Origin: Eledone cirrhosa
Lineage: Eukaryota
Direction of reading: 5' to 3'
DNA length: 64,000 nucleotides
Assembly (NCBI GenBank): GCA_964016885.1
Contig: OZ024755.1
Coordinates: 30,070,001-30,134,000, forward strand
Shown: positions 1,604 through 63,549 of the stretch, in pieces
How the letters are laid out: each line of letters opens with the position of its first letter
How positions within the stretch are numbered: the first letter of the stretch is position 1
The notes under the pieces: generated by a model
Told to the model about the DNA's origin: nothing
What the model saw: only the letters and a program-made list of their open reading frames with translations
Databases searched by the model: none
Program-made: the position numbers and the translations under genes

Positions 1604-2925
1604 AACAATTAAGTTAAAGATGTACATCCATATATGTATACTGAAATACTAGTATGTATATGAATACACACACGTATACATATGTAGATGTACCAAGTTT
1701 TTTTCACTGGTCACTTTACTGTGAGTGGCCAGCTATTCCGTATGTAAACACACAGACAAACCGGTTTTTAGAGTCATACTGGTTTTTGAGGAAACACCTT
1801 TCCTCTATTCTCCAGAAAGCCAGACAAGGAATATTGAACTAGTTTCGTTGTTGTTACAACTCATCAGCAATATTTACCTATCTTCCGGCCTCTCTAGAGA
1901 ATCGTAAAAGCACATAGCGCTATATGCTTTTTCTATGAAAATTAGTAGTGGGCAGACTAATTTGCATAGAGTGTGAGTAAGTACCGGTTCAACGGAGACG
2001 ATAAAAACAAATAACGAAACGAAATTAAATTTCGTTTCGTTTGTAACTCACTTTTGTATGACTGACGCTTAAACAATTAAGTTAAAGATGTACATCCATA
2101 TATGTATACTGAAATACTAGTATGTATATGAATACACACACGTATACATATGTAGATGTACCAAGTTTTTTTCACTGGTCACTTTACTGTGAGTGGCCAG
2201 CTATTCCGTATGTAAACACACAGACAAACCGGTTTTTAGAGTCATACTGGTTTTTGAGGAAACACCTTTCCTCTATTCTCCAGAAAGCCAGACAAGGAAT
2301 ATTGAACTAGTTTCGTTGTTGTTACAACTCATCAGCAATATTTACCTATCTTCCGGCCTCTCTAGAGAATCGTAAAAGCACATAGCGCTATATGCTTTTT
2401 CTATGAAAATTAGTAGTGGGCAGACTAATTTGCATAGAGTGTGAGTAAGTACCGGTTCAACGGAGACGATAAAAACAAATAACGAAACGAAATTAAATTT
2501 CGTTTCGTTTGTAACTCACTTTTGTATGACTGACGCTTAAACAATTAAGTTAAAGATGTACATCCATATATGTATACTGAAATACTAGTATGTATATGAA
2601 TACACACACGTATACATATGTAGATGTACCAAGTTTTTTTCACTGGTCACTTTACTGTGAGTGGCCAGCTATTCCATATGTAAACACACAGACAAACCGG
2701 TTTTTAGAGTCATACTGGTTTTTGAGGAAACACCTTTCCTCTATTCTCCAGAAAGCCAGACAAGGAATATTGAACTAGTTTCGTTGTTGTTACAACTCAT
2801 CAGCAATATTTACCTATCTTCCGGCCTCTCTAGAGAATCGTAAAAGCACATAGCGCTATATGCTTTTTCTATGAAAATTAGTAGTGGGCAGACTAATTTG
2901 CATAGAGTGTGAGTAAGTACCGGTT
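1602..2925 (-). repeat. Left arm of the 468-bp tandem array (~2.8 units; hammerhead sense on minus strand)
   Basis: identical motifs recur every 468 bp (e.g. ORF starts 1654/2122/2590); hammerhead motifs on minus at 1830-1874, 2298-2342 and 2766-2810. Confidence 0.95.
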
Positions 2926-5900
2926 CAATATTCCTTGTCTGGCTTTCTGGAGAATAGAGGAAAGGTGTTTCCTCAAAAACCAGTATGACTCTAAAAACCG
3001 GTTTGTCTGTGTGTTTACATACGGAATAGCTGGCCACTCACAGTAAAGTGACCAGTGAAAAAAAACTTGGTACATCTACATATGTATACGTGTGTGTATT
3101 CATATACATACTAGTATTTCAGTATACATATATGGATGTACATCTTTAACTTAATTGTTTAAGCGTCAGTCATACAAAAGTGAGTTACAAACGAAACGAA
3201 ATTTAATTTCGTTTCGTTATTTGTTTTTATCGTCTCCGTTGAACCGGTACTTACTCACACTCTATGCAAATTAGTCTGCCCACTACTAATTTTCATAGAA
3301 AAAGCATATAGCGCTATGTGCTTTTACGATTCTCTAGAGAGGCCGGAAGATAGGTAAATATTGCTGATGAGTTGTAACAACAACGAAACTAGTTCAATAT
3401 TCCTTGTCTGGCTTTCTGGAGAATAGAGGAAAGGTGTTTCCTCAAAAACCAGTATGACTCTAAAAACCGGTTTGTCTGTGTGTTTACATATGGAATAGCT
3501 GGCCACTCACAGTAAAGTGACCAGTGAAAAAAACTTGGTACATCTACATATGTATACGTGTGTGTATTCATATACATACTAGTATTTCAGTATACATATA
3601 TGGATGTACATCTTTAACTTAATTGTTTAAGCGTCAGTCATACAAAAGTGAGTTACAAACGAAACGAAATTTAATTTCGTTTCGTTATTTGTTTTTATCG
3701 TCTCCGTTGAACCGGTACTTACTCACACTCTATGCAAATTAGTCTGCCCACTACTAATTTTCATAGAAAAAGCATATAGCGCTATGTGCTTTTACGATTC
3801 TCTAGAGAGGCCGGAAGATAGGTAAATATTGCTGATGAGTTGTAACAACAACGAAACTAGTTCAATATTCCTTGTCTGGCTTTCTGGAGAATAGAGGAAA
3901 GGTGTTTCCTCAAAAACCAGTATGACTCTAAAAACCGGTTTGTCTGTGTGTTTACATACGGAATAGCTGGCCACTCACAGTAAAGTGACCAGTGAAAAAA
4001 ACTTGGTACATCTACATATGTATACGTGTGTGTATTCATATACATACTAGTATTTCAGTATACATATATGGATGTACATCTTTAACTTAATTGTTTAAGC
4101 GTCAGTCATACAAAAGTGAGTTACAAACGAAACGAAATTTAATTTCGTTTCGTTATTTGTTTTTATCGTCTCCGTTGAACCGGTACTTACTCACACTCTA
4201 TGCAAATTAGTCTGCCCACTACTAATTTTCATAGAAAAAGCATATAGCGCTATGTGCTTTTACGATTCTCTAGAGAGGCCGGAAGATAGGTAAATATTGC
4301 TGATGAGTTGTAACAACAACGAAACTAGTTCAATATTCCTTGTCTGGCTTTCTGGAGAATAGAGGAAAGGTGTTTCCTCAAAAACCAGTATGACTCTAAA
4401 AACCGGTTTGTCTGTGTGTTTACATACGGAATAGCTGGCCACTCACAGTAAAGTGACCAGTGAAAAAAAACTTGGTACATCTACATATGTATACGTGTGT
4501 GTATTCATATACATACTAGTATTTCAGTATACATATATGGATGTACATCTTTAACTTAATTGTTTAAGCGTCAGTCATACAAAAGTGAGTTACAAACGAA
4601 ACGAAATTTAATTTCGTTTCGTTATTTGTTTTTATCGTCTCCGTTGAACCGGTACTTACTCACACTCTATGCAAATTAGTCTGCCCACTACTAATTTTCA
4701 TAGAAAAAGCATATAGCGCTATGTGCTTTTACGATTCTCTAGAGAGGCCGGAAGATAGGTAAATATTGCTGATGAGTTGTAACAACAACGAAACTAGTTC
4801 AATATTCCTTGTCTGGCTTTCTGGAGAATAGAGGAAAGGTGTTTCCTCAAAAACCAGTATGACTCTAAAAACCGGTTTGTCTGTGTGTTTACATATGGAA
4901 TAGCTGGCCACTCACAGTAAAGTGACCAGTGAAAAAAACTTGGTACATCTACATATGTATACGTGTGTGTATTCATATACATACTAGTATTTCAGTATAC
5001 ATATATGGATGTACATCTTTAACTTAATTGTTTAAGCGTCAGTCATACAAAAGTGAGTTACAAACGAAACGAAATTTAATTTCGTTTCGTTATTTGTTTT
5101 TATCGTCTCCGTTGAACCGGTACTTACTCACACTCTATGCAAATTAGTCTGCCCACTACTAATTTTCATAGAAAAAGCATATAGCGCTATGTGCTTTTAC
5201 GATTCTCTAGAGAGGCCGGAAGATAGGTAAATATTGCTGATGAGTTGTAACAACAACGAAACTAGTTCAATATTCCTTGTCTGGCTTTCTGGAGAATAGA
5301 GGAAAGGTGTTTCCTCAAAAACCAGTATGACTCTAAAAACCGGTTTGTCTGTGTGTTTACATACGGAATAGCTGGCCACTCACAGTAAAGTGACCAGTGA
5401 AAAAAACTTGGTACATCTACATATGTATACGTGTGTGTATTCATATACATACTAGTATTTCAGTATACATATATGGATGTACATCTTTAACTTAATTGTT
5501 TAAGCGTCAGTCATACAAAAGTGAGTTACAAACGAAACGAAATTTAATTTCGTTTCGTTATTTGTTTTTATCGTCTCCGTTGAACCGGTACTTACTCACA
5601 CTCTATGCAAATTAGTCTGCCCACTACTAATTTTCATAGAAAAAGCATATAGCGCTATGTGCTTTTACGATTCTCTAGAGAGGCCGGAAGATAGGTAAAT
5701 ATTGCTGATGAGTTGTAACAACAACGAAACTAGTTCAATATTCCTTGTCTGGCTTTCTGGAGAATAGAGGAAAGGTGTTTCCTCAAAAACCAGTATGACT
5801 CTAAAAACCGGTTTGTCTGTGTGTTTACATACGGAATAGCTGGCCACTCACAGTAAAGTGACCAGTGAAAAAAACTTGGTACATCTACATATGTATACGT

Positions 5901-6500
5901 GTGTGTATTCATATACATACTAGTATTTCAGTATACATATATGGATGTACATCTTTAACTTAATTGTTTAAGCGTCAGTCATACAAAAGTGAGTTACAAA
6001 CGAAACGAAATTTAATTTCGTTTCGTTATTTGTTTTTATCGTCTCCGTTGAACCGGTACTTACTCACACTCTATGCAAATTAGTCTGCCCACTACTAATT
6101 TTCATAGAAAAAGCATATAGCGCTATGTGCTTTTACGATTCTCTAGAGAGGCCGGAAGATAGGTAAATATTGCTGATGAGTTGTAACAACAACGAAACTA
6201 GTTCAATATTCCTTGTCTGGCTTTCTGGAGAATAGAGGAAAGGTGTTTCCTCAAAAACCAGTATGACTCTAAAAACCGGTTTGTCTGTGTGTTTACATAC
6301 GGAATAGCTGGCCACTCACAGTAAAGTGACCAGTGAAAAAAACTTGGTACATCTACATATGTATACGTGTGTGTATTCATATACATACTAGTATTTCAGT
6401 ATACATATATGGATGTACATCTTTAACTTAATTGTTTAAGCGTCAGTCATACAAAAGTGAGTTACAAACGAAACGAAATTTAATTTCGTTTCGTTATTTG

Positions 6501-6507
<7 letters not shown>
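2926..6507 (+). repeat. Right arm of the 468-bp tandem array (~7.65 units, inverted relative to left arm; hammerhead sense on plus strand); retrozyme-like
   Basis: CTGATGA cores start at 3364, 3832, 4300, 4769, 5237, 5705 and 6173 (468/469-bp spacing); ends in (TA)n at ~6507. Confidence 0.95.
3357..3401 (+). ncRNA. Type I hammerhead ribozyme (representative of 10 complete copies in the array)
   Basis: AATATTG-CTGATGA-GTTGT(AACA)ACAAC-GAAA-CTAG-TT-CAATATT: 7-bp stem I, 5-bp stem II, palindromic minimal stem III (ACTAGT), GUU cleavage triplet (cut 3394/3395). Confidence 0.85.
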
Positions 6508-6557
<50 letters not shown>

Positions 6558-6570
6558 GTATATATATATG

Positions 6571-6650
<80 letters not shown>
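6507..6650. repeat. (TA)n microsatellite, right flank of the array
   Basis: direct reading. Confidence 0.95.
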
Positions 6651-6656
<6 letters not shown>

Positions 6657-7144
6657 GCTTGAGATTGGTGTGGAAGTCGGACCTTCGTAGAGACCTGAAA
6701 ATCCGCCTCTTCATTGCTGTAGTGGAATTTGTGCTGCTGTACTGGTCTGAGACTTGGACACTGACCAAGAAACTCACTCAGATGGTGGATGGGTGCTACA
6801 CGAGAATGCTGAGGATGGCTCTGAACATTAATCAGTATACACTGAGGATGAAAAACTCAGAGCTGTATGGGAGCATCCCAAAAGTTAACTCAAAAGTGAC
6901 ACAGAGGAGACTGAGGTTGGCTGGACATGCTCACCGACATCCAGAGATGACATTGCACTCAGTGCTCCTTTGGGAGCCCCTACATGGACACACTAGAAGA
7001 GGAAGACCAAGGTTAACATATGTTGATGCCCTAAGGACAGACACTGGTCTGTTGGAGATGCAGGATATGGCAGCGATAATGAGGGACAGAGACCGCTGGA
7101 GAGAACTCGTCCATGGATCTCGGGAATTTTACCCGCCTTAGAGG
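6657..7144 (+). mobile_element. 5'-truncated RTE-clade LINE (C-terminal ORF fragment)
   Basis: KIRLF..VV..VLLY.SETWTL...RMLR...[17 protein letters not shown] is typical of the RTE C-terminus; probable TSD TATATACACACA (6645-6656 / 7145-7156). Confidence 0.85.
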
Positions 7145-7504: not shown

Positions 7505-7960
7505 ATATATATATATATACAATATATTAACAAATGGAAACTATATTAATAAAACCATATTTATTTCATTATACATATTTCCAGGACACAAAAGCAAATT
7601 ACGGTGCGCTTTCATCAGATAAAATATAATATAGATCAGTTTTATAAACAAATATTGACATACCCTTAAAGAATGCAACCATGTCGGTTGGAAGCTATCC
7701 GGGAGCTTCCAATTATGGTGTGCTTTCATCAGATAAAATATAATATAATATAGATCAGTATTATATTATATTTTATCTGATGAAAGCACACCATAATTTA
7801 ACTTGGTGTCCTTGAAATATGTATAATGAAATAAATATGGTTTTATAAATATAGTTTCCATTTGTTAATATATCGTATTTTTACTCCAATAATTTGTTGA
7901 GTGCTTTATATCAGTTATAAAAATATTTGCTTGTTGTATCCCAACAATTTAAATAGAACT
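7505..7960. mobile_element. Family A pLTR-like element in inverted and partially tandem arrangement
   Basis: minus copies 7505-7760, plus copy 7760-7960 with TTTATCTGATGAAAGCACACC...GGTGTCCTTGAAATATGTA. Confidence 0.6.
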
Positions 7961-23629: not shown

Positions 23630-23863
23630 AAATATACACGGGTGTGTATGATTGTGTATAGAAGATTATATTAATAAGAGGAATTCCAACTTTGTCTGAT
23701 TTACTCGTTTTATTTACAATCTTTTAAAATATATATAATGGTATTATAATGAAATAGTATGATAGAATATTAAATTCTAAGTGTTAATTGAACAAGTACT
23801 TTCATGCTTTCGCAATCTTCAGGTTCATAATATGTGGTGACAGTCAAGTTTGCAATTTTCAAC

Positions 23864-54404: not shown

Positions 54405-54784
54405 CATATATATATATAAATGTATGTGCAAATGTGTATACATATATATGTGCTTGTGTGTGTAATTGAATGATGCAGGCAGGTTTGCATAAGCATATAT
54501 ATATATATATATATAAACGCACATATCCAGCATGAATCAATAATTAGTAAATCCACGTTGAGATTTCCATATGAAATCTTCAGCTCAGCTTACTACTTGA
54601 TGCCGATCAAATATTGATCATTGGCAATTACTTTAGTACATCATTGTATGACTAAGCTGGTAATTAGCCTTTGTCAGTGGTTGCCTAGATTCGGTATCAT
54701 GATGTGTAGCAAATGGCTGATAAATCTCCCACCGCATGGGACAGTCCTGATCTAATATAGAACCATTCAGATACATCTAAAGAA

Positions 54785-56420
54785 TCACCTGTCTAACACA
54801 TCACCTGTATAACACATCACTTGTCTAACACAGTACCTGTCTAACACATCACCTCTCTAACATATCACCTGTCTAACACAGCACCTGTCTAACACACTAC
54901 CTGTCTAACACAGTACCTGTCTAACACATCACCAGTCTAACACATCACCTGTCTAACACACTACCTGTCTAACACATCACCTGTCTAACACATCAGCTGT
55001 CTAACACATCACCTGTCTAACACATCACATGTCTAACACATCACCTGTCTAACACAGTACCTGTCTAACACATCACCTGTCTAACCCAGTACCTGTCTAA
55101 CACAGCACCTGTCTAACACAGTACCTGTCTTACTCATCACCTGTCTAACACAGTACCTGTCTAACACATCCCCTGTCTAACACAGTACCTGTCTTACACA
55201 TCACCTGTCTAACACATCCCCTGTCTAACACAGTACCTGTCTTACACAGTACCTGTCTAACACAACACCTGTCTAACACATCACCTCTCTAACATAGCAC
55301 CTGTCTAACACATCACCTGTCTAACACATCCCCTGTCTAACACAGTACCTGTCTTACACATCACCTGTCTAACACAACACCTGTCTAAAACATCACCTGT
55401 CTAACATAGCACCTGTCAAATACATCACCCGTCTAACACATTACCTGTCTAACACATTACCTGTCTAACACATTACCTGTCTAACACATTACCTGTCTAA
55501 CACATTACCTGTCTAACACATTACCTGTCTAACACATCACCTGTCTAACACAGTACCTGTCTAACACATCACCTGTCTAACATATCACCTGTCTAACACA
55601 TCATCTGTCTAACATAGTACCTGTCCTAACACAGTACCTGTCTAACACAGTACCTGTCTAACACATCACCTGTCTAACACATCACCTGTCTAACACAGTA
55701 CCTGTCTAACACATCACCTGTCTAACACAGTACCTGTCTAACACATCCCCTGTCTAACACAGTACCTGTCTTACACATCACCTGTCTAACACATCCCCTG
55801 TCTAACACAGTACCTGTCTTACACAGTACCTGTCTAACACATCCCCTGTCTAACACAGTACCTGTCTTACACATCACCTGTCTAACACAACCCCTGTCTA
55901 ATACATCACCTGTCTAACACAGTACCTGTCTAACACATCACCTCTCTAACATAGTACCTGTCTAACACATCACCTGTCTAACACATTATCTGTCTAACAC
56001 AGTACCTGTCCTAACACAGTACCTGTCTAACACAGTACCTGTCTAACACATCACCTGTCTAACACATCACCTGTCTAACACAGTACCTGTCTAACACATC
56101 ACCTGTCTTACATATCACCTGTCTAACACACCCCCTGTCTAACACAGTACCTGTCTTACACATCACCTGTCTAACACAGTACCTGTCTAACACATCCCCT
56201 GTCTAACACAGTACCTGTCTTACACATCACCTGTCTAACACAACACCTGTCTAATACATCACCTGTCTTACACATCATCTGTCTAACACATAACCTGTCA
56301 TACACATCACCTATCTTACACATCACCTCTCTTACACATCACCTGTCTAACACAGTACCTATTACACTACTTGTCTAACATACCACCTGTCTAATACATC
56401 TCCTGTCTAACACAGGACTG
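54785..56420. repeat. 16-bp minisatellite (~100 copies)
   Basis: CACCTGTCTAACACAT / TACCTGTCTAACACAG variants. Confidence 0.95.
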
Positions 56421-56919
56421 TTTTAACACATCACTGGTTTATCACACCTCCAGTTTAGCACACCACTAGTTGAACACATCACTCGTTTAACACGGCTTGA
56501 GTTTATCAGAACACTTAAAAGAGGAAGTGTGTAACCGAGCACTAGTTTATGACGCAAGTTTATCATGATACGGATCTAATACAGTACCAGATAAATAAAG
56601 CTCTAATATCAACGAATACCCACCTGTCAGTGTATCAGATTACCACCTTACCAGTCGATATGGCGTTGGAAAAATTGATATGGGGTTACCAGAGGCTTCT
56701 GTCTGCTGTCTTAATTTTGGAAAGTCCCATTGGACTGTATAGTGCTTCATACAGAAAATGATCGGTGTTCGAAATGGTAAACTATTAAAGGTCTTTTGGA
56801 TCAGAACAACAATAATGATAGACCAACTGCTTAGTGTAACGAAACAATGGGCAATAAATACTTCCCAGCATTGCAACAACAATGGTGTACATGCAGCAGA
56901 TTTGTGTCAAGACAATAAT

Positions 56920-60324: not shown

Positions 60325-61530
60325 TGGTACATGTGGTGTTGGTGGTGGTAGTGGTGGTGGTCGTCGTGGTAGTGGTGGTGGTGGTGGTAGTGGTAGTGGT
60401 GGTGGTGGTGGTGGTAGTGGTGGTGGTGGTGGTAGTGGTGGTGGTGGCGGTGGTGGTAGTGGCGGTGGTGGTGTTTGTGTTGGTGGTGGTGGTGGTGGCG
60501 GTGGTGGTGTTGGTGTTGGTGGTGTTGATGGTGGTGGTGTTGGTATTGGTGGTGTTGGTGTTGGTGGTGGTGGTGTTGGTGGTGGTAGTGGTGGTGGTGG
60601 TGGTGGTGGTGGTGGTGGTGGTGTTGGTGGTGGTGGTGTTGGTGGTGGTGGTGGTGTTGGTGGTGGTGGTGGTGTTGGTGGTGTGTTGGTGGTGTTGGTG
60701 GTGGTAGTGGTGATGGTGGTGGTGATGGTGGTGGTGTTGGTGGTGTTGGTGGTGGTAGTGGTGGTGTTGTGGTGTTGGTGTTGGTGGTGGTAGTGATGGT
60801 GGTGGTGGTGTTGGTGTTGGTGGTGTTGGTGTTGGTGGTGGTGGTAGTGGTGGTGGTGGTGGTGGTGTTGGTGGTGGTAGTGGTGGTGGTGGTAGTGGTA
60901 GTGGTGGTGGTGGTGGTGGTGGTAGTGGTGGTGTTGGCGGTGGTGGTAGTGGCGGTGGTGGTGTTGGTGTTGGTGGTGGTGGTGGTGGTGGTGTTGATGG
61001 TGGTAGTGGTGGTTGGTGGTAGTGGTGGTCGTGGTGATAGTGGTAGTGGTGATAGTGATGGTGGTGGTGGTGGTAGCGATGGTAGTTGTGGTGGTGGTGG
61101 TGATAGTGGTGGTGGTAGTGGTGATACTGGTGGTGGTGGTGGTGGTGGTGGTGATAGTGGTAGTGGTGATAGTGGTGGTGGTGGTGGTGATAGTGATGGT
61201 AGTTGTGGTGGTGGTGGTGGTGGTAGTAGTGATAGTGGTGCTGATAGTGATGGTAGTTGTGGTGGTGGTGGTGGTGGTGGTAGTGGTGATATTGGTGGTG
61301 GTGGTGGTGGCGATAGTGGTGGTGGTAGTGGTGATAGTGGTGGTGGTGATAGTGGTGGTAGTTGTGGTGGTGGTTGTGGTGGTGATGATAGTGGTGGTGG
61401 TAGTGGTGATAGTGGTGGTGGTGATAGTGGTGGTAGTTGTGGTGGTGGTTGTGGTGGTGATGATAGTGGTGGTGGTAGTGGTGATAGTGGTGGTGGTGAT
61501 AGTGATGGTCGTTGTGGTCGTGGTTGTTAT
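60325..61530. repeat. Degenerate (GGT)n trinucleotide tract
   Basis: direct reading. Confidence 0.95.
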
Positions 61531-61734
61531 GCTGGAAGCCATATCAAATTAATTCAAGTGTCCATACTGACATTGGTAGCTGTGATCAAAACGACGGCCA
61601 TATTGGTAAGGCAGTGTCAGCGGTGCCCATATATAGAGATTGCTGCAGTATATGTTGTAGTACTATAAAATGGGGGGGGGGGTAGGGTGAGTAGCAGTTA
61701 GAGCAGTTGCAAACGCTGTAGTTCCAGTACAGCA

Positions 61735-62026
61735 ACAACAGTAGTAGTAGTATTATTGGTGGTAGTAGTAGTAGTAGTAGCAGTAATAGTAGTAGCAGCA
61801 TCAGTAGTAGTAGTAGTGGTAGTAGTAGCAGTAGTAGTAGTTGTAGTAATAGCAGCAGCAGCAGTACTAGTAGTAGCAGCAGCAGCAGTAGTAGTAGTGG
61901 TAGTAGTAGTAGTAGTAGTAGCAGCAGAAGGAGTACTAGTAGTAGTAGTAGCAGCAGTAGTAGTAGTAGTAGTAGCTGTAGTAGTAGTAGCAGCAACAGT
62001 ATTATTATTATTGGCAGTAGTAGTAA

Positions 62027-62065
<39 letters not shown>

Positions 62066-62156
62066 CAGCAGCAGTAGCAGTAGTAGTAGTAGCAGCAGCA
62101 GCAACATCATCAGCAGCAGAAGCAGTAGTACTAGTAGTAGCAGTAGTAGCAGTAGC

Positions 62157-62187
<31 letters not shown>

Positions 62188-62310
62188 ATAGTAGCAGCAG
62201 TAGCAGTAGTAGTAGTAGTAGTAGTAGCAGCAGCAGCAGCAGCAATATCAGCAGTAGTAGTAGTAGTAGTAGTAGTAGCAGCAGCAGCAGTAGTAGTAGT
62301 AGTAGTAGTA
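61735..62310. repeat. Degenerate (AGT/AGC)n tract
   Basis: direct reading; a related tract at 63228-63548. Confidence 0.95.
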
Positions 62311-62504
62311 ATGCGACCTAATAGAAATATAACAAAGAAGTATAACTTTTAATAGTCGGTTGTTGTTGAGATAAAGTAAAGAGAATAAAGTTGACCGTTG
62401 AAATCAATATAAATACAATACATAAGTATATAACTGCGCGCGCTTTTCTGTATCAGATGTCTGTGTGTGCGTGTGCGTGTGTGTGTATTAGAGCGAAGAT
62501 AGAT

Positions 62505-63230
62505 ATATTTCTTTATTTGCCACAAGGGCGCATAAGAGAAAGGGGACAATAGAAGGACATATGTCGGGGATTTTACTATATACATCTGGTAAAAAAAACT
62601 TTTTAACAAACAAATTCAACAATCGAAATCCCCAACAAGGGGGGGGGGGAGGCGTTACAAATGGGTTGTTTAATACCCCGTAGATAGAACAGCCCTCAAC
62701 TCCAGCAGCATGTTGTGCAAGTGCACCTTTCTTCCTTTTGTTCTCTTCTTCAACCTACGGGTTTATATACAGAGAAGGTCCAATCACTCGGGTCATTTTT
62801 GCTACATTCACCCACCTTTCAGTAAATTTACTGGGGTGCAGCGCGTCTCTCTCCACTCTGATTCTCCTTCTAAAGTGGTACTTAAAGAAGGGAAGGAGTT
62901 GTTGTCCGGAGAGAAAGGCATCTGTCCTCAGTCCTCTCAATATTGTCCACCATATAACCTCTTTTACCATAGCCACTGTACAGAGGCAAGCCGCCTCTCT
63001 TTCGTTTTTGAAAGAAGTTGGCGGTTTGATCCTTACCATGAACTCGGCAGTCAACTGGATTTGTCCCATAGGCGGCAGCAGTTGTTCTGCGTAGTTCCAC
63101 AGGTCGGTTACGCCCGGGCAGGACAGTTTCAATGTCCCAGAAGTGGGCAGACTGCAAACTATCCTTGAAAGGTCGAGCGGAGGTGGCGAACACTTTCATA
63201 GCGTCCGTAATCTACTACCGCTTGACCGTC
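62505..63230 (-). mobile_element. Tx1/L1-clade LINE 3' fragment with inverted 5' segment
   Basis: minus-strand ORF2 C-terminus plus 3' end ...CTTGTGGCAAATAAAGAAA; plus-strand KW..LSLKGRAEVAN..IASVIYYRL at 63137-63230. Confidence 0.8.
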
Positions 63231-63345
63231 GTAGTAGTAGTAGTAGAAACAGCAGCAGCAGTAGTAGCAGTAGTAGTAGTAGTAGTAGCTGTAGTAGTAG
63301 TAGCAGCAACAGTATTATTATTATTATTATTGGCAGTAGTAGTAA

Positions 63346-63414
<69 letters not shown>

Positions 63415-63456
63415 CAGCAGCAGCAGTAGTAGTAGTAGCAGGAGCAGCAACAAAAT

Positions 63457-63492
<36 letters not shown>

Positions 63493-63549
63493 TAGCAGTA
63501 GCAACAGCAGCAGTAGTAGTAGAAGTAGTAGTAGTAGTAGTAATAGTAT

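Follow-up and report, generated by a model that had tools for sequence, protein, structure and literature searches.

Architecture of the window locus

The window analysed here is a stretch of 64,000 nucleotides (nt) from the genome assembly of Eledone cirrhosa (GCA_964016885.1, contig OZ024755.1, positions 30,070,001 to 30,134,000), and the element in question is an array of 468-nt units arranged in two head-to-head arms. By its sequence the unit is a non-LTR (long terminal repeat) retrozyme with a predicted hammerhead ribozyme. We read the array as a non-autonomous retrozyme inserted in trans by twin target-primed copying, with two fixed start sites on a sense RNA that was either uncleaved or had been re-ligated (rough probability 0.8). 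Unit positions are numbered from the base after the predicted cut, and window 3863–4330 (plus strand) serves as the reference monomer. A (TA)n-rich target microsatellite (1354–1603) flanks the left arm, which comprises 2.8 units on the minus strand (1602–2928). Its ribozyme-sense 3' end is unit 235 (the short end, window 1602) and its 5' end is unit 313–319. The right arm comprises 7.7 units of 468–469 nt on the plus strand (2923–6507), with its 5' end at unit 466–4 and its 3' end at unit 304 (the long end), and is flanked by a second (TA)n target microsatellite (6505–6650). The two arms meet through a 6-nt microhomology, GTTCAA (2923–2928), with three bases on each side of the predicted cut. 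The ribozyme-sense 3' ends of both arms point outward into (TA)n, inside which a target-site duplication cannot be delimited. Unit 236–304 forms a Penelope-type tail with a 14-bp hairpin (6439–6507, plus strand), found at the outer end of one arm only. The first-pass annotation had likewise placed the meeting of the arms at this GTTCAA, the cut base at 2926, the next cut 469 nt on at 3395 and both 3' ends facing (TA)n, and these positions agree with ours.

The hammerhead of the unit has a stem I of AATATTG/CAATATT, the core motifs CTGATGA and GAAA, a palindromic helix III (ACTAGT) and a predicted cut GUU/C. Core, stems I and II and the palindromic helix III are present in all 10 complete copies of the window. 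We take the motif to be a type I hammerhead from a match by eye to the consensus; an Rfam scan of the window gave 0 matches at the gathering score. The motif closest to the junction in the left arm, read by eye, lies at 2766–2810 (minus strand) with 2772 as the first base past the predicted cut; the corresponding bases of the other left-arm copies are 2304 and 1836. In the right arm the first complete motif spans 3357–3401 (plus strand) and would be cut GUU/C before 3395, with further predicted cuts before 3863, 4331, 4800, 5268, 5736 and 6204. In the predicted fold two ribozyme cores pair with each other via the palindromic helix III. The reference monomer folds far better than shuffled sequences (z −9.3 against 100 shuffles) at a GC content of about 0.35. 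Low GC with strong self-pairing, and head-to-tail repeats of a few hundred nt with no LTR, are features of non-LTR retrozymes. The locus is built solely of the 468-nt unit and does not carry the reverse transcriptase (RT) plus GIY-YIG open reading frame (ORF) of an autonomous Penelope-like element; the unit was judged non-coding from its size and repeat structure, not from an ORF search.

A fixed pair of 3' ends across the assembly

The 48-nt ribozyme core occurs in 4,810 exact copies in the 3.0-Gb assembly. One outer end followed by TA gives 1,174 matches on the forward strand alone, which corresponds to roughly 2,300 insertions. The forward-strand counts of the two 3' ends (1,174 vs 211) are not comparable, as the second pattern contains a base restricted to young copies. 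We parsed 81 stretches, namely the window, 26 drawn from the top DNA matches, 50 picked consecutively on contig C1 through their outer end and 4 found by the ribozyme. The C1 sample was picked by (TA)n outer ends, and a separate set of 20 stretches was not picked in this way.

The outer ends of the copies lie in (TA)n, the microsatellite or AT-rich type of target used in Penelope-like insertion. Two TA-anchored arms, inverted and joined head to head at truncated 5' ends, are visible in 51 of the 81 stretches. At 50 of these 51 loci an arm that ends at unit 230–235 stands opposite an arm that ends at 301–305, tail-out. The single exception is a 230/230 pair, and no 304/304 pair was found. Hence the tail is present at one end only in 50 of 51 two-armed loci, which is the mark of two RT start sites. 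Among the 50 short/long pairs one is a duplicate junction, and the arms of one pair lie 844 nt apart. Microhomology of 0–8 nt is seen at 49 inversion junctions. Public contigs from runs X1 and X2 also contain these two 3' ends, each as a loose TA end. With inverted arms that lie tail-out in (TA)n, a fixed pair of ends and a tail of about 70 nt, the family carries a Penelope-like insertion signature.

An assembly artefact as the source of the inversion is extremely improbable. Among the public contigs listed none spans the window junction, a gap that proves nothing, whereas two such arms are found at fifty other loci, where the junctions fall at scattered unit positions, and the rare alleles 98G, 385G and 388C are common to both arms of the window.

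Three loci on contig C1, L089, L090 and L098 (55.97, 55.99 and 63.02 Mb), carry one old junction at three places and are probably segmental copies. The unit is partly present in the public data of 16 coded organisms and one wastewater metagenome (runs X1–X20), and the family probably spans related species; none of the runs listed for the unit is an RNA run, which speaks neither for nor against its transcription. At L135 (2700–3264) a different repeat with inverted arms matches unit 144–215 and 272–319 at 77–80% and has a similar tail hairpin; it is probably a sister retrozyme family.

Arm starts at the predicted cut

The first-pass annotation had read the inversion junction as lying exactly at the cut, where a complementary DNA (cDNA) would have run off the 5' end of a self-cleaved RNA, so that the junction would be evidence of cleavage in vivo. 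The overlap interval does include the cut. The start of the right arm is nevertheless ambiguous between unit 466 and unit 4, and three of the six shared bases (GTT) lie upstream of the predicted cut. A cDNA that ended at a cleaved RNA cannot contain GTT, so those three bases would have to match by luck (1.8%). With two arm ends and an interval of 7 positions, the cut would be covered by chance in about 3% of cases, about as unlikely as the GTT match, and one junction cannot decide the matter.

The family provides the larger sample. We collected 131 arm starts outside the window, excluding the two arms of the window, L090 and L098 with the junction they share with L089, two arms truncated by an N or by the edge of a stretch, and two short stray fragments; hand curation added five arms and corrected four. 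At −3 to +4 of the cut 2.7 starts were seen, with 1.9 expected from the number of passes. No start falls at +5 to +9 in this sample, and none lies at the cut in the twenty further stretches. In the parsed stretches 331 of 334 arrivals at +5 continue beyond the cut. Genome-wide, foreign sequence begins at most 7 nt upstream of the cut in 22 of 7,258 copies of the post-cut 22-mer, the window included, with a search pattern that passes about 45% of such cases. The matched control site gave 31/5,524, three of them one-base indels, which leaves 28/5,524. The rate at the cut is thus lower than at the control (0.30% vs 0.51%, Fisher P 0.085). Counted by hand, the 22 include only 2 that start precisely at +1, and 8 in which seven ribozyme bases from upstream of the cut are present. 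A motif search that would detect part of any 3' ends at the cut yielded 8 matches, no more than one or two of which are such ends.

It is therefore quite improbable that the right arm ended where RT left a self-cleaved 5' end at +1 and that in vivo cleavage is recorded in the junction. In favour of this reading, +1 lies within the ambiguity interval, two other copies (L084, L155) start exactly there, and a mild excess of starts at +14 to +28, described below, could consist of trimmed run-off ends. Such a run-off does not account for the matching GTT, for the near-cut starts, of which only 2 of 22 are without upstream ribozyme bases, for a cut region no richer in starts than the control, or for the empty interval at +5 to +9; the right arm of the window itself crosses seven other cut sites. 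The arm starts are spread along the unit, and the scatter of junctions over the genomic copies is the outcome that the annotation had itself named beforehand as speaking against its claim. At the family level the run-off is largely refuted, and for the window neither the run-off nor the evidence of in vivo cleavage drawn from this junction is supported. That the window junction coincides with the cut is a matter of chance, made likelier by an inverted 6-mer at that place; inverted 6-mers are numerous within the unit. The absence of enrichment means that cleaved linear monomers are not the usual template, in agreement with in vitro data on Penelope-like insertion.

L155 (1420–1974) holds tandem shortened units that are missing 136–237 and 441–468 and are joined exactly on +1; no other individual copy is as good a candidate for a 5' end made by true cleavage. 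The GTACCG-GTTCAA context of the window recurs at L152, which was considered as a copy of this locus but rejected, as it lies on a short-end arm and lacks a long partner arm.

Sites where arm 5' ends accumulate

The arm starts have a hot spot at unit 115–119, at the edge of a small hairpin loop in the predicted fold (3977–3981, plus strand, in the reference monomer; the window locus does not use it). Eleven starts of the sample fall at 116–124 where 2.7 are expected (scan-corrected P 0.027). A genome-wide search of the region around unit 117 gave 33 matches, 25 of them starts by hand count, over a denominator of about 2,550 that comes from a mis-registered pattern, which passes intact copies, gave 2,516 and is used as a denominator only. 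The resulting start rate is about five times the rate at the cut. An RNA polymerase III start at unit 117 was considered and dismissed, as arms stop there after several units and cross the T runs.

A milder excess lies at +14 to +28, within a long helix that extends stem I, at about 1.5 times the control rate (sample scan P 0.13). This figure comes from 108 matches, with about 80 of the 100 listed being junctions and the denominator taken from the count of the post-cut 22-mer. Since the sample contains no starts at +5 to +9, RT pausing in RNA structure is a simpler reading of this excess than trimmed run-off. Re-copied pieces of 10–25 nt are found at or near junctions of L055, L079, L103, L153 and L032, several at unit 116–126, as expected from an RT slipping back at a pause.

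Template RNA and strand-biased changes

Most young two-armed loci carry the same variants in all units of both arms. We polarised alleles against the family majority, on the ribozyme strand, at 89 loci. Among alleles found in at least two units of a locus, A>G changes outnumber T>C changes by 29 to 12 (P 0.005), and among single-unit alleles the counts are 12 and 15. Among rare shared alleles A>G leads T>C by 16 to 2; leaving aside alleles found only in the two clustered loci gives 12 to 1. A>G changes recur in separate lineages at unit 338–359, in one paired helix. Mutation of DNA after insertion should be strand-symmetric, and the bias therefore looks like adenosine-to-inosine (A-to-I) editing of the sense RNA that was then copied into DNA; an RT bias is also possible.

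At one locus, L096, both arms show eight A>G and one C>T in all units that cover these positions. Five of these A>G fall within a 32-mer whose only four occurrences in the assembly are at L096, one of them on the minus arm and the other three on the plus arm. As this haplotype is private and stands in both arms, both were probably copied from one edited sense RNA. The same changes are repeated in successive units, which fits a monomeric circle. Alternatively, one edited linear dimer was followed by a gain of two units in DNA, or the source is absent from the assembly. Three clustered A>G mark a small lineage of seven dispersed loci (L080 and six others; C1, C6, C18, C410, C744) with 71 units. 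At L048 and L067 the variants of individual units keep one register in the two arms when counted from the 3' end, from which it follows that mixed multimers served as template in some cases. A simple trimer circle as template of the window right arm was tried and does not fit its last units. At L174 (1275–5896), a single case, one arm switches from an old-subfamily to a young haplotype somewhere from unit 468 to 70, a span in which the cut lies.

Based on these patterns, the arrays may record rolling-circle reverse transcription, in which two Penelope-type RTs would start from opposite nicks, at fixed sites 70 nt apart, on one A-to-I-edited monomeric circular RNA in the germline and would carry its edits into each unit of the two arms. 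We put this at slightly less than an even chance. The circular template, and with it the indirect evidence of in vivo cleavage, is plausible but unproven, and we lean narrowly away from it. If true, the circle would show cleavage in vivo indirectly, and RNA editing would feed heritable change into the family.

The same data bear on whether inverted Penelope arms arise by twin priming on the sense RNA or by self-priming on the antisense strand, the latter proposed for inverted Penelope copies in the part of Arkhipova 2013 (PMC3846280) drawn on here. That the inverted arm came from self-priming or fold-back on an antisense template, or from DNA repair, rather than from a second target-primed event on sense RNA, is favoured by a few junctions that are palindromic fold-backs (L062) and by the abundance of inverted repeats in the unit. 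Most junctions, on the other hand, connect unrelated unit positions, the outer ends are both fixed and different from each other, and the changes shared by both arms are A>G on the sense strand and not T>C. Such an origin is improbable. The RNA-mediated, twin-primed origin proposed by the annotation is supported by the fixed pair of 3' ends (50/51), the sense A>G bias and the private A>G haplotype in both arms; its run-off part is not supported.

Proposed insertion mechanism

Twin target-primed copying in trans would proceed as follows. The mover, which we infer together with its nicks, is probably a Penelope-like RT-endonuclease of Neptune type. It would bind the ribozyme-sense RNA around unit 235–304 and nick both strands of a (TA)n tract. 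On the same RNA one cDNA would be primed at about 304 and the other at about 235. Each RT would copy backwards over one or many units, straight past the cut position. It could do so because the template would be an intact multimer or a re-ligated circle. The cDNA ends would stop mostly at random and more often at RNA structure (unit 117, 14–28), and would then be joined head to head by 0–8 nt of microhomology. Some arrays would later gain blocks of units by duplication in DNA.

The genome contains 10,595 GIY-YIG candidates. Long frames with RT, zinc knuckle and GIY-YIG, of 938 and 1,096 residues, exist elsewhere in the genome and are read as Neptune-type from the cysteine motif described in the part of Craig 2021 (PMC8557442) used here. 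At L143 an autonomous element with RT and GIY-YIG has an inverted short end on its left and an end about 40 nt longer on its right, both in (TA)n, and so shows the tail-out arrangement of one short and one long end seen in the retrozyme arrays; L146 and L151 are inverted ORF pairs. A 30-nt, 80% match to the unit at L144/L150 is antisense inside the ORF and was dismissed as chance.

Several points weigh against the mechanism or against parts of it. None of 41 GIY-YIG loci examined (30 + 11, of the 10,595 candidates) shares the ribozyme or the tail of the unit, and the 8 matches of a motif search reveal no other multi-copy family that carries this ribozyme. At about 70 nt the tail exceeds the published 30–40 nt. 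The contrast between shared and single-unit alleles reaches only P 0.04, and the 29 A>G sites show no clear ADAR neighbour preference. The 97 C>T variant of the window stands one unit out of register between the arms. Finally, periodic variants specific to one arm are seen in L037/38, L086, L092, L103 and L177, and these block patterns show that duplication in DNA also builds arrays.

The last point raises the question whether RT writes retrozyme arrays at the time of insertion or whether they expand afterwards in DNA. Short two-armed insertions could have been made by RNA and the multi-unit arrays grown afterwards by unequal crossing-over or slippage, with no circle needed; local DNA amplification of retrozyme arrays has been proposed in the part of a preprint (bioRxiv 10.64898/2026.07.22.740005) consulted for this work. 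Besides the block-periodic loci just named, the window right arm contains a three-unit repeat of variants, and L096 could be one edited linear dimer plus a gain of two units. To seed such expansion, though, each arm must already cross a unit boundary. The three-A>G haplotype lies at seven dispersed loci, six of them multi-unit arrays, and the variants of L048 and L067 shared in 3' register mean that multi-unit templates were copied. We consider growth in DNA as the general source of the arrays unlikely, though well ahead of fold-back, and keep to arrays written at insertion by twin target-primed copying.

Other features of the window

A second hammerhead-like family with CTGATGA, GAAA and a TA-rich helix III is present at 896–1104 and 7512–7883, with motifs at 1057, 7618, 7777, 16725 and 43382; it also occupies short inverted arms. 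More hammerhead-like motifs lie at 23822 (minus) and 45391 (plus), 34713 (plus) and 52776 (minus), 38381 (plus) and 53450 (plus). Those at 23822 and 45391 match a motif in the 3' region of the Neptune-type family L144/L150/L151. Right of the array an open frame of 161 residues (6656–7141, plus strand) ends beside a TA run; we take it to resemble the C-terminus of a LINE protein of RTE type. In run X14 a contig connects sequence similar to 6656–7141 with unit position about 241. The regions 54784–56434 and 60333–63548 hold a minisatellite with a 16-nt unit in 103 copies, together with long tracts of GTG and AGT type.

Comparison with known systems

In LINE-1 twin priming, each of two nicks in the target primes a cDNA, and microhomology joins the pair head to head. 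The present arrays differ in that there is no poly(A) priming, the start sites are fixed about 70 nt apart and the arms copy overlapping rather than consecutive parts of the template.

Non-LTR retrozymes were defined by Cervera and de la Pena 2020 (PMC7229834), where circles were shown, tandem cDNA synthesis from the circles by Penelope-like RTs was proposed and Penelope-like elements were put forward as possible movers. As described in the part of that paper used here, such retrozymes share with the present family tandem non-coding units that each contain one type I hammerhead, as well as a low GC content and strong pairing of the unit with itself. The unit of 468 nt is slightly above the range of 150–450 nt given there. 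Expression and circles were demonstrated for those retrozymes. The two inverted arms with a fixed 3'-end pair in (TA)n are a further difference, and the word 'inverted' is absent from that paper. In the open full-text literature we found no account of retrozyme arrays with inverted arms and a tail, nor of editing marks in them; subscription papers were outside the scope.

An inverted copy and a one-ended tail are described for Penelope-like elements (PMC8557442; PMC3846280). Frangieh 2024 (PMC11167929) reported that a Penelope-like protein cuts and extends both strands and that two internal RNA start sites equal the tail. Insertion there needs no ribozyme cleavage, no RNA reads start at the cut, and in vitro there is no strand difference in the start site. 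Judged from the relevant parts of these three papers, the present family resembles Neptune, Poseidon and Naiad in its inverted, 5'-truncated head-to-head copy, its tail at one end and its microsatellite target, and it agrees with Penelope-like elements (PMC11167929) in two internal RT start sites and in a hammerhead cut that is apparently not needed for insertion. Unlike Neptune, Poseidon and Naiad, it has the longer tail noted above, a unit that is non-coding by size and repeat structure, and arms that can both reach many units. The strict pairing of one short with one long end was counted in the present family, whereas the in vitro data in the available part of PMC11167929 saw no strand difference.

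Retrozymes were read as non-autonomous Penelope derivatives by Li 2026 (bioRxiv 10.64898/2026.07.22.740005), from co-occurrence and similarity to the pseudo-LTR (pLTR), according to the portion of that preprint at hand. Our assignment is the same, but its basis is the insertion anatomy and the strand-biased variants, and no pLTR partner was found in the 41 loci. The movement of animal retrozymes has so far been argued from co-occurrence; the present family, with about two thousand young copies, ties a retrozyme to the two-start-site mechanism of Penelope by its anatomy.

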